Source of the DNA: a virus | Virus record (IMG/VR): IMGVR_UViG_3300021375_000007 | Location: 1 to 64,000 of that record | Length of the DNA stretch: 64,000 bases | Strand: one strand, 5' to 3' | Shown here: in pieces, positions 37,797 through 61,112 of the stretch | How positions within the stretch are numbered: position 1 is the first letter of the stretch | Layout of the letters: each line of letters begins with the position of its first letter | Notes under the pieces: model-generated | Seen by the model: only the letters and a program-made list of their open reading frames with translations | Databases searched by the model: none | Told to the model about the DNA's origin: nothing | Position numbers and translations under genes: made by a program

Positions 37797-37835
37797 TAAT
37801 ACTCCTTATAACTTTTATATAAATATGCAGAACAG

Positions 37836-40197: not shown

Positions 40198-40253
40198 TGA
40201 TTATCCCTTTTATTAAGTTTTTATATAAATATGATATTAATCAGCCAAACAAT

Positions 40254-43120: not shown

Positions 43121-43183
43121 GAATTACCTTTTTATATAAATATCGAAGGCTACAAGAAAGGATGTGTTATAGTTTAAATGACA

Positions 43184-43756
43184 TTATCTTACCAAACTTA
43201 CTTTACCTACTATTTCTTTATAGTAGTTTTGATAATCTTGATAGCGTATTTTATAAGTATATACAGCTTGTGGGCATAAACGTCCTCGAACTTTTCCATT
43301 CCATCCACCATTAATATTACGAGTAAAATATAATTGTTGCCCCCACCGATTATAGATAGCCATTTCGTAATATTTGATGTTAGTTGCCTTTGCAGTAAAT
43401 ATATCATTATAACCATCATTGTTAGGTGTAAATGAATTAGGAACATAAATAGTGGTAGTATTACATGGCAATGTTTCCATTATCAAATTAACGCTACTTC
43501 CACAATTCAGATCGTTTGTCACCGTAACAGTCAGCTGACCGGTACCTGGTACATCATTCCAATCTACTAGTACATTACCATTATTGTAGTTAACTATTGT
43601 ACCATTGGTAACTTGGTAATTGTATTGATATTGTGAATTGTATGGCACTGTATATTGTACTGGCCTAATGCCATTATAGCATAAAGGTATACGATGGTAG
43701 TATTGTGCTTGTAACGTATTGCAAGCTAGTAATAAGATAATTAAATACTTAATCAT
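43184..43756 (-). CDS. Secreted protein with a T9SS type-B (gliding-motility-associated, CHU_C-type) C-terminal domain
   Basis: Signal peptide ending LQA-Q; an Ig/PKD-like segment; then IYVPNSFTPNNDGYNDIF...IYNRWGQ...WNG...YTYKI...GKVSLVR. Confidence 0.85.
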   Translation of the reverse strand: MIKYLIILLLACNTLQAQYYHRIPLCYNGIRPVQYTVPYNSQYQYNYQVTNGTIVNYNNGNVLVDWNDVPGTGQLTVTVTNDLNCGSSVNLIMETLPCNTTTIYVPNSFTPNNDGYNDIFTAKATNIKYYEMAIYNRWGQQLYFTRNINGGWNGKVRGRLCPQAVYTYKIRYQDYQNYYKEIVGKVSLVR

Positions 43757-44090
43757 GCGTTATAGCCCCTGTTACCGGTGTCGCATTAACCGTAACATCG
43801 CATAATACTATATTACCTACACATCCATTAATATCAGTTTCAATTACTTCAACTGCATAATTGCCTGGTATTGTAGCAGACCAATCAACTTGTATCGTAT
43901 TTGTGCCTTGCCCGGCTGCTATATTACCACCTGTAATATTCCATGCGTAAGTTGAGCCTGGCGTGGCAGGTACTGAATAGGCTGTTAAATTAGCATCTGA
44001 TTCACATATGAAATCTGGACATGGTAGATTTTGAGAATAACCTGCTAGCGTCGCTAGACTTAAAAATAATATAACTGCAATCTTTTTCAT
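43749..44090 (-). CDS. Secreted PKD/Ig-like protein with C-terminal PVTGAITHD
   Basis: Signal peptide MKKIAVILF...GYS-Q; YSV....GSTY.W.ITGG.I..GQGTN.I.VDW PKD-like motif; start moved to 44090, downstream of an RBS. Confidence 0.75.
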   Translation of the reverse strand: MKKIAVILFLSLATLAGYSQNLPCPDFICESDANLTAYSVPATPGSTYAWNITGGNIAAGQGTNTIQVDWSATIPGNYAVEVIETDINGCVGNIVLCDVTVNATPVTGAITHD

Positions 44091-44112
44091 TTGTATCCTT
44101 TTATATAAATAT

Positions 44113-44715
44113 CTAGTTATGTGTAATAGCACCTGTTAATACGGGAGGACAGCATTCTATTGTAGCATTAAAAGTTTCATTTGGATCTGCTTGGCAGTCT
44201 AAATTTATCCAACTACCTGTTTCCCCATCAGCATAATTTTCAATTATAATAGATAAATCATCACCATTTGTGTTAGGTGGGCAATCCCCCACAGTAACTT
44301 GAAACTGGAATGTCCAAGGGCCGTTCAACCCATCACCCCAATTATTACCCGGATTACCATCTAATGCACCACCTAAATTAGTATCATAAAACCACCCTGG
44401 GTTATTTATGATTATGCCTGTAGCAGATGATTGTACCATATTAACCCATAACCATACACCTGTTCCTGAGTTATTTGTTGGGAAACCTACAGGAACTAAT
44501 GAGGCAGCATCCCATCCACCACCTAACGCGACTGCAACTCCATGCATCCAATTTACCGATAATCCTTGGTAGTCTACTATAGTATAAGTAAATGTTATTG
44601 TTTGGCCTGGTTGGTATGTTCCTCCTATAGGTGGTATATCAACTGCAATGTTATCATCTAATATACATTGAGAAAATACTTGGAATGGGAATAGCAGTAA
44701 TAATAACCATTTCAT
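44113..44715 (-). CDS. Secreted beta-rich protein with C-terminal PVLTGAITHN
   Basis: Signal peptide MKWLLLLLFPFQVFS-Q; Gly/Trp/Asn-rich body with a DGNPGNNWGD motif. Confidence 0.7.
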   Translation of the reverse strand: MKWLLLLLFPFQVFSQCILDDNIAVDIPPIGGTYQPGQTITFTYTIVDYQGLSVNWMHGVAVALGGGWDAASLVPVGFPTNNSGTGVWLWVNMVQSSATGIIINNPGWFYDTNLGGALDGNPGNNWGDGLNGPWTFQFQVTVGDCPPNTNGDDLSIIIENYADGETGSWINLDCQADPNETFNATIECCPPVLTGAITHN

Positions 44716-60692: not shown

Positions 60693-61112
60693 TTAAAGTG
60701 ATAACCAAATAATTGCCGCAATTGAACCAATTGCTATTGTGGTACCACTAGCTATAATTGCAATACGCTTTCGTCGCTCTTTTTTTGCTTTAACTAGATA
60801 TAATTTAATTTGATCATCCTTTACATCTATTAGATCATTCAAATCATTTACTTCATACTTATATCTACGTATAACACCTTTATAATTAATTATTACACTA
60901 TCCTTTTCTAATAGTTGAGCATCCTTAAGTGTTACAATTTTTCGAGTTGCGAGTAATTCAGCCTTACAAAAATCCCCAGACTTTATATCTTGTATAGCAC
61001 TTATAAGATATGATTTAGGTAAACAAATAATTGTATCATTTACCGTAACGCTTTGCGAAAAACTCTGAAATGTCGTTAGTATTAAAATTACTAATAGTTT
61101 CCAATGTTTCAT
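60693..61112 (-). CDS. Spanin-like partner: signal peptide, coiled coil and C-terminal hydrophobic segment
   Basis: MKHWKLLVILILTTFQSFS-Q; overlaps the upstream TM/coiled-coil gene in another frame. Confidence 0.5.
   Translation of the reverse strand: MKHWKLLVILILTTFQSFSQSVTVNDTIICLPKSYLISAIQDIKSGDFCKAELLATRKIVTLKDAQLLEKDSVIINYKGVIRRYKYEVNDLNDLIDVKDDQIKLYLVKAKKERRKRIAIIASGTTIAIGSIAAIIWLSL

Follow-up and report, generated by a model that had tools for sequence, protein, structure and literature searches.

The first 64 kb of the IMG/VR virus record IMGVR_UViG_3300021375_000007 (64,000 nucleotides of 153,457 bp, hereafter the window; CheckV completeness of the record 87%) belong to a T4-like marine virus from a seawater sample and contain three adjacent genes, P1 ('tip'), P2 ('shaft') and P3 ('anchor'). 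We propose that their products are parts of a single cell-surface adhesin that is divided over three polypeptides, each exported on its own. P1 and P2 end in almost the same short tail, which corresponds to the first strand of a PKD_6 repeat, and the proteins encoded next, P2 and P3, carry a PKD_6 domain that, by profile alignment, lacks this strand. We estimate a probability of about 0.6 that the tail is a donor strand that docks in trans and links the three polypeptides into one adhesin exported by the secretion system of type IX (T9SS). The cassette had been singled out beforehand from the letters of the window (hereafter the original prediction) as a possible phage-built surface filament.

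Export signals and domain content

By inspection, all three proteins start with a Sec signal peptide of the n-h-c type followed by Gln at position +1. The signal peptides span residues 1–15 of P1, 1–19 of P2 and 1–17 of P3, with cleavage sites VFS/QC, GYS/QN and LQA/QY, respectively (the slash marks the cut). This Gln is present in each of 21 P2 homologues, and its conservation in 31 P1 homologues is at least 90%, in keeping with the Bacteroidota-typical cleavage site that the original prediction had read in all three genes and with the Q-rule of this phylum, according to which Gln follows the Sec cleavage site (PMC5837995). None of the three proteins has a lipobox, the +1 residue not being Cys.

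P3 matched both CHU_C (PF13585; E 2.8e-15, 56.6 bits, cut-off 27) and TIGR04131 (E 1.6e-16, about 60–62 bits, cut-off 35, positions 2–85 of 85). Both curated cut-offs were thus passed, and the type-B T9SS C-terminal sorting domain (CTD) ascribed to P3 from its sequence was borne out by the profile search. No other CTD occurs in the 153-kb record, and neither TIGR04131 nor PF13585 found one in P1 or P2. P2 matched Pfam PKD_6 (PF19408) with 30.7 bits against a gathering cut-off of 25. For P3 no Pfam PKD_6 match was reported at E ≤ 0.1; its N-terminal domain was recognised by a custom PKD_6 repeat profile, described below. Both matches agree with the PKD/Ig-like fold claimed for P2 and P3. The AlphaFold2 (AF2) model of P2 has six strands and a mean confidence (pLDDT) of 78.5. 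Structurally it was matched best, with Z scores of 7–7.7, by PKD domains and by Ig-like domains from GhpA, the grappling-hook protein of the T9SS.

P1 had no family in Pfam, NCBIfam or PHROGs, and a PDB sequence search was also blank; PHROGs holds no family for any of the three proteins, and NCBIfam names the CTD alone. The layout of P1 is a signal peptide, a beta-sandwich adhesin-like domain, a CC pair and the tail. Its AF2 model (pLDDT 79.6) is all-beta and weakly resembles cohesin, CLIPPER and pilin adhesin domains, with TM-scores of 0.3–0.4 that indicate a beta-sandwich and nothing finer. The same type of domain occurs within SprB-repeat adhesins of 1512–1670 amino acids with a type-B CTD, encoded on phage contigs. 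Three such single-chain proteins were a 1670-residue protein of the 642-kb uncultured phage LR756502.1 (L001, 3476–8488) and two proteins of about 1515 residues on viral contigs (L023, 4148–8707; L024, 4470–9008). In all three, the P1-like domain is followed by 10–13 SprB repeats, a PKD domain and CHU_C. A P1-like domain is also present in a 342-residue fragment among these relatives.

A C-terminal tail matching the first strand of a PKD_6 repeat

P1 ends in CCPPVLTGAITHN-stop and P2 in NATPVTGAITHD-stop, with the shared ends TGAITHN and TGAITHD, exactly as first noticed. Among the 657 open reading frames (ORFs) of at least 40 amino acids in the 153-kb record, these two alone end in I.H[NDE], and synonymous differences separate their DNA copies. 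Chance does not explain the shared tail. The motif is kept in homologues of both proteins. In about 30 P1 homologues with 60–92% identity the pattern CC....T..I.H[NEY] is conserved, and in 21 P2 homologues (61–95% identity, 113–114 amino acids), all of which end in P.TG.ITHD, the residues P, T, G, I, T, H and D never vary. Between loci the tail codons show synonymous changes, and on this pattern both tails are under purifying selection. Two scans of viral contigs for TG[AP]ITH[DN]-stop returned just the P1 and P2 families plus one chance match of 11 amino acids. A scan of genome contigs for P.TG.ITHD-stop returned one chance match (a 27-amino-acid frame in a metagenome-assembled genome of Bacillota), this pattern being too narrow for the bacterial tails described below, which end in HW, HN, HF or HY.

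When the P2 alignment served as query in an exhaustive profile search, 5611 proteins were retrieved, and the best 150 were all giants with tandem PKD_6 repeats, 579–7315 amino acids long. From 90 such giants we took 307 repeat junctions, which gave the consensus V-T-[IV]-N-A-x-P(81%)-x-T(63%)-[SG]-x-I(88%)-T(54%)-G(76%)-[DN]-x-x-V-C(73%). The P2 C-terminus, VTVNATPVTGAITHD, fits this consensus at all conserved positions bar one, where Gly is replaced by His. His occupies that position in about 1% of internal bacterial repeats and is universal in the terminal tails, and none of the giants ends at the point where the tail does. On the strength of this alignment, the tail, nine residues long, is the inter-repeat linker plus the first strand of a PKD_6 repeat, with Gly replaced by His. 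The exchange, which lies beside a free C-terminus, may cap the strand or may provide a contact with His or aromatic residues that are conserved where the acceptors begin.

Several other readings were considered and set aside. Read-through or recoding that would join the ORFs is excluded by their different frames and by the separate signal peptide of each. For an intein-like His-Asn terminus, an isopeptide tag, or a C-terminal signal of the outer-membrane-protein or sortase type, no supporting domain or partner was found.

PKD_6 domains that, by profile, start after the first strand

The custom repeat profile was built from 81 bacterial units starting at the linker Pro and has 85 positions, its consensus beginning PTTSAITGDTSVC. 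Mature P2 aligned to positions 12–84 (E 5e-27) and mature P3 to positions 13–75 (E 2.8e-12), with positions 1–12 missing from P3. Aligned in this way, P2 and P3 are PKD_6 domains that start just past the first strand, and the tail matches the missing strand position by position, the Gly-to-His exchange apart. The original prediction had left two options for the tail, a sorting signal not yet characterised or a donor strand by which the Ig fold of the next subunit is completed. The second option is the one supported here, by the identity of the tail with the first PKD_6 strand and by the lack, in profile alignment, of that strand in the next proteins, and a sorting signal is not favoured.

The tail could instead be the leftover linker of a multi-domain ancestor, or could cap the domain of its own chain in cis, with no physical link between the proteins. 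Its sequence is indeed that of a linker between repeats, and a larger adhesin gene could plausibly have undergone fission. A leftover would be expected to decay, whereas P, T, G, I, T, H and D remain invariant while their codons change synonymously, and the His that is universal in terminal tails is found in only about one in a hundred internal junctions. AF2 folds neither tail back onto its own protein: the P1 tail is disordered in the monomer model (pLDDT 49) and the P2 tail is coil (pLDDT 63–69). P1 carries a PKD_6-type tail and no PKD_6 domain that it could cap, and in its single-chain relatives the P1-type domain is followed by SprB repeats instead, so the P1 tail cannot act in cis. We consider a leftover or a cis cap very unlikely.

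Larger cassettes on bacterial chromosomes

One metagenome scan with the P2 alignment yielded 79 loci, about 20 of which were of the phage type and some 30 of which were more distant cassettes. In the latter, the tips (213–938 amino acids) have a signal peptide and end in T.PI[SN]H[NY]-stop. The shafts follow 13–74 nucleotides after the tip, are 187–529 amino acids long, start with QT.TSPTQ.VC after the signal peptide and end in P.TGPI.H[WNFY]-stop. The anchors (195–427 amino acids) lie at most 16 nucleotides from the shaft stop, a few overlapping it by up to 4 nucleotides; they begin with Q..V.LC and end in a CHU_C / TIGR04131 domain. All tips and shafts in these cassettes thus end in T..I.H.-stop. 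The donor is always encoded before the acceptor: the first protein is a donor only, the middle one is both, and the last combines an acceptor with the CTD. An upstream ORF that ends in TG.I.H. and stops at the anchor start was present for 35/35 complete anchors with a type-B CTD, a close association of the tail motif with such genes, and a shaft followed 27/27 bacterial tips ending in T.PI[SN]H[NY].

The truncation of the heads recurs as well. In all bacterial shafts and anchors tested, the match to Pfam PKD_6 began at profile positions 6–13 and at residues 21–36 of the protein, with scores of 21.5–40.2 bits (5 of 7 above the cut-off of 25). Before the conserved Cys, mature anchors have 6 residues and shafts 10, compared with 12 in a full repeat. 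The tips carry varied domains, namely legume-lectin (E 3.6e-48), GEVED, SprB repeats and Ig_7.

Several cassettes lie on contigs of 155–600 kb, flanked by guaA, a LysM protein gene, lolA and ftsK, and from these housekeeping neighbours we conclude that they are bacterial-chromosomal. Examples are L070 (2172–6221), L068 (504–5476), L051 (1616–6340) and L101 (1741–4568), plus about 25 loci among L049–L104. On the long, housekeeping-flanked contigs the three proteins measure 385–938, 190–529 and 355–427 amino acids, compared with 200, 113 and 190 in the phage. Smaller cassettes exist, such as L050 (213 and 187 amino acids), and are assigned neither to phage nor to chromosome. Judged by these shared gene orders and motifs, the phage cassette is a small version of a kit found on Bacteroidota chromosomes, and a phage-only framing is not supported.

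The differences between classes also bear on whether the shaft polymerises. If the P2 tail fitted the head of another P2, the product would be a fibre of variable length with P1 as cap and P3 as base, similar to type V or chaperone-usher pili. P2 owns both a head and a tail, the tails of P1 and P2 are near-identical in the window, and P2 has its own late-type promoter motif, all of which would suit such a fibre. Across cassettes the tails nevertheless fall into distinct classes (T.PI[SN]H[NY] in tips, TGPI.H in shafts), as do the heads (QT.TSPTQ.VC in shafts, Q..V.LC in anchors), which suggests two lock-and-key pairs. In related phages, moreover, the P1 tail is less constant (ILHN, IFHN) than the P2 tail, which remains ITHD. 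Translational coupling of P2 and P3 favours near-equal amounts of the two: the P2 stop and P3 start overlap by 8 nucleotides in the window (ATGATTAA), and by 8, 4 or 1 nucleotides in 9/9 viral loci and 20/21 metagenome loci. Because tip and shaft tails differ, and shaft and anchor heads differ, an ordered 1:1:1 chain appears more likely than a homopolymeric shaft. We regard a polymerising fibre as unlikely, and the filament of the original prediction gives way to a chain of three parts.

The tail might also be a tag for a host factor, such as a periplasmic chaperone, a T9SS component, a shuttle or a host PKD_6 adhesin, with the proteins acting separately or capping or poisoning host adhesins. 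This would agree with the lack of structure of the tail in the monomer models and with the penultimate His, which is invariant over all classes while the last residue varies; the same kind of heads exists in bacterial hosts, and cross-talk is conceivable. A host-factor tag would not explain why the tail is the same as the first strand of just that domain with which the next encoded protein starts, nor why genes with tails abut genes with heads at every one of the 27 tips and 35 anchors, and a general tag would be expected on more exported proteins than two in the phage record. We find it improbable, and keep docking in trans between the cassette proteins as the preferred reading.

Phage-type relatives

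In viral contigs P1 either adjoins P2 or lies 0.45–1.2 kb upstream, separated from it by small unrelated ORFs. Some of these ORFs recur: an ORF for an 88-amino-acid membrane-anchored protein (ending LDKLCVLEAK) and a lipoprotein-like ORF (LIIIGC) were seen between P1 and P2 in L030, L032, L036 and L040, and upstream of P2 in L011 (256–848). In some phages the cassette adjoins the same neck gene as in the window, in others its neighbours are DNA polymerase and UvsX-like genes, and from these varying neighbourhoods it behaves as a mobile accessory module. Where it sits among replication genes, a conserved ORF of about 100 amino acids (M..FNEFLNEG..SWGGMQF...) that has no signal peptide lies directly upstream of P2 (L019, 4951–5250; L020, 6174–6488; L022, 5778–6077). 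Near one such cassette, a UvsX/RecA-like gene (L004, 6195–7151) continues after its GGGG motif with CLTPGSLVLMSDNSY..., resembling the start of an intein.

In two loci P1 is damaged and P2–P3 are intact. On the contig that L022 shares with L004 and L048, P1 (4783–5280) is truncated to 165 amino acids and has lost its tail, and in L047 (2677–3326) it is split into two ORFs. The tip thus appears dispensable or decaying in some lineages. An apparent natural P2–P3 fusion (P0059, 204 amino acids) turned out to be merely an upstream start call.

Five paired loci (L018–L021, and positions 44116–44124 with 44010–44015 of the window) showed a correspondence between the two proteins, with T before the His of the P1 tail accompanying D26 of P2 (PCPDF) and L or F accompanying H26 (PCPHF). 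The pairing may be donor–acceptor covariation and is confounded by the division of these loci into two clades.

The ESM Atlas clusters for P1 are 98–100% viral. Partial matches came from sequencing runs labelled as marine metagenomes, and the relatives are all marine. Contigs with P1 and P2 relatives were also present in a marine RNA library, which does not show transcription.

Genomic setting and the late-type motif

The coordinates of the cassette and its features are given in Table 1. The ORF list starts P2 at GTG 44132, and the signal peptide begins at the ATG used in the table. In agreement with the original prediction, the three genes are adjacent and lie between the neck gene and the fibre genes. 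Read along the minus strand, a fibre-like protein of 460 amino acids, a DUF285 protein of 709 amino acids and an ORF of 76 amino acids precede P1–P2–P3, which are followed by a head-tail adaptor (phrog_211), a collar-like protein, a T4 gp15-type sheath stabiliser and the tail sheath. In a blastn comparison of the cassette region with cultured phages, the sole match was 372 bp long and lay under the neck gene.

Table 1 Features of the three-gene cassette in the window.
Feature	Position	Strand	Description
P1 ('tip')	44113..44715	minus	200-amino-acid secreted protein (ORF check)
P2 ('shaft')	43749..44090	minus	113-amino-acid secreted protein, counted from ATG 44090
P3 ('anchor')	43184..43756	minus	190-amino-acid secreted protein (ORF check)
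Late-promoter-like motif TATTTATATAAAA	44099..44111	minus	9 nucleotides upstream of P2 start
P1 tail PPVLTGAITHN (proposed donor strand)	44116..44148	minus	CC....T..I.H[NEY] in homologues
P2 tail TPVTGAITHD (proposed donor strand)	43752..43781	minus	Match to repeat-junction consensus
P3 PKD_6-like domain (proposed acceptor of P2 tail)	43490..43681	minus	Custom repeat profile, positions 13–75
P3 type-B T9SS C-terminal sorting domain	43187..43447	minus	TIGR04131

The late-type motif that had been noted ahead of the putative shaft gene is indeed there, and it is enriched. It has 11 sites in the window (936–59083), all on the coding (minus) strand, against 1.9 expected. Besides P2 it precedes the sheath gene (40219–40231) and the neck gene (43130–43142), and further example sites are at 37813, 38390 and 59071. 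The motif is probably the late promoter of this phage, and its distribution suggests that the cassette is transcribed together with the late structural genes.

This position within the structural module raises the possibility that P1–P3 are Ig-like decoration proteins of the virion, and the P2 profile does match two phage decoration proteins weakly (5lxk, E 0.0056; 8zvi, E 0.074). The Sec signal peptides and the P3 CTD would, however, take the proteins away from the cytoplasm, the site of virion assembly; related phages carry the cassette among replication genes; and the same kit is chromosomal in bacteria. We give decoration of the virion almost no credence.

Elsewhere in the window (60693–61112, minus strand) lies another ORF with a signal peptide, 139 amino acids long, with Ser-Gln cleavage (MKHWKLLVILILTTFQSFS/Q) and no Pfam family.

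Proposed assembly and points against it

In the proposed mechanism, Sec would carry each protein over the inner membrane, and in the periplasm the P1 tail would dock on the PKD_6 head of P2 and the P2 tail on the head of P3. We infer docking in trans, either by strand complementation or by augmentation of an edge strand, and the product would be an ordered tip–shaft–anchor chain. By means of the type-B CTD of P3 the assembly would then pass through the T9SS of the host, and the chain would be held on a PorP/SprF-like shuttle of the host, invoked since the phage encodes none. The order of parts would be that of single-chain adhesins, in which a tip domain is followed by Ig repeats and CHU_C. 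The likely role would be to equip the infected cell, or the debris after lysis, with an adhesin specified by the phage; the late-type motif on P2–P3, together with the marine relatives, suggests display on the infected cell late in infection. Such an adhesin might mask receptors on debris, stick infected cells to new hosts or particles, or interfere with host adhesins. The original prediction had suggested superinfection exclusion, jamming of gliding or T9SS traffic, and adhesion to new hosts as possible roles. Resistance of Flavobacterium to phages often maps to gliding and T9SS genes (PMC9804748).

Several observations weigh against this proposal. P2 and P3 retain 8–9 residues before the conserved Cys, and the P2 model aligned to small PKD domains over model residues 20–104. 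From these two findings, a short N-terminal strand of P2 or P3 itself could, in the model, occupy the site of the first strand, in which case the tail may pair along an edge instead of closing a gap. For piggyback export, by the T9SS, of partners that lack a CTD, no precedent was found in the searchable literature. The 153-kb record, at 87% completeness, had no match to PF11751 (PorP/SprF) at E ≤ 1, so export would rely on a host partner. PorP/SprF-like shuttles serve as the anchor of type-B cargo, with an orphan shuttle shared among orphan cargos (PMC9143113, PMC12618676); as orphan type-B cargos with an unlinked shuttle are known (PMC12618676), a shuttle gene beside the cargo is usual and not obligatory. 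Synteny is not perfect either. P1 is separated from P2 by 0.45–1.2 kb in four contigs and was not seen upstream in L011, and in L035 (141–1023), the sole exception to the P2–P3 pairing, P2 is followed at an overlapping ATG by an unrelated ORF of 145 amino acids that has no signal peptide. Finally, late timing fits poorly with classical superinfection exclusion.

Possible significance

We put forward, with confidence that stands about even, a more general proposal. Bacteroidota and their phages would build T9SS adhesins from PKD_6 domains split after the first strand; the pieces would snap together through the T-G-x-I-x-H-x tail and ride on one type-B CTD, with exchangeable tips (lectin, GEVED, SprB-repeat or phage P1), and phages would carry a minimal version of 1.5 kb with which to re-tip or re-coat the infected cell. 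A literature search found no description of this assembly principle.

If the docking is true, it would provide a route by which CTD-less proteins reach the Bacteroidota surface via the T9SS, and the tail and head would constitute a natural pair of short peptide tag and small Ig-like catcher that joins proteins in the periplasm. It would also account for the three-gene locus next to guaA, lolA and ftsK that is conserved in marine Flavobacteriia-like genomes and has no annotation. On the same condition, a lytic T4-like marine phage would spend late expression on a secreted cell-surface adhesin, and such an adhesin would bear on host stickiness, aggregation and receptor exposure in dilute seawater.

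Comparison with known systems

Donor-strand assembly has well-described counterparts. In type V pili (FimA/Mfa1), which belong to the same phylum, the tip is a donor, the stalk both acceptor and donor, and the anchor an acceptor, and the donor strand is C-terminal, as in the cassette (PMC4789730, PMC8512630). Type V pilins are lipoproteins from which a protease removes an N-terminal strand, and they polymerise (PMC4789730, PMC8512630), whereas the cassette has neither a lipobox nor the FimA/Mfa fold, gives no sign of polymerisation, and uses a PKD_6 fold with a T9SS CTD as anchor. In chaperone-usher pili, and likewise in CupE, TasA and archaeal threads or cannulae, the strand of a neighbour completes an Ig-like subunit, as we propose here (PMC10104325, PMC10151520, PMC9715654). 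Compared with chaperone-usher fibres, the cassette has no chaperone or usher, its donor is C-terminal and not an N-terminal extension, and the strand concerned is the first (edge) strand and not the last. No pilin, chaperone or usher family was found for the cassette in Pfam, NCBIfam or PHROGs; given this and the missing lipobox, the cassette is a functional analogue outside the type V and chaperone-usher families.

Among Ig-like proteins, the P2 domain matched Aureispira GhpA (PDB 9flp, 9fly and others) with Z scores of 7.5–7.7 over 70–75 residues, values within the range usual for any Ig-like fold. GhpA is likewise a T9SS-dependent surface fibre and differs in being one giant chain. The decoration proteins Hoc and pb10 are cytoplasmic and bind the assembled capsid, whereas the cassette proteins carry export signals.

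Closest in composition are the SprB-type single-chain T9SS adhesins (PMC9143113, PMC12618676), which have the same parts in the same order (tip, PKD/Ig repeats, type-B CTD). They are one chain, whereas here there are three genes, each with a signal peptide and only the last with a CTD; the cut falls one strand into the next PKD_6 domain, and no porP/sprF gene is adjacent. Phage carriage of T9SS cargo is not new in itself, since the 'Cryophage' is reported to carry such cargo too, in the form of single proteins with type-A CTDs, namely an endoglucanase and GH39 and PA14 proteins (PMC7468147). In the phage described here, by comparison, the cargo is a type-B anchor accompanied by two CTD-less partners with a coupling tail.

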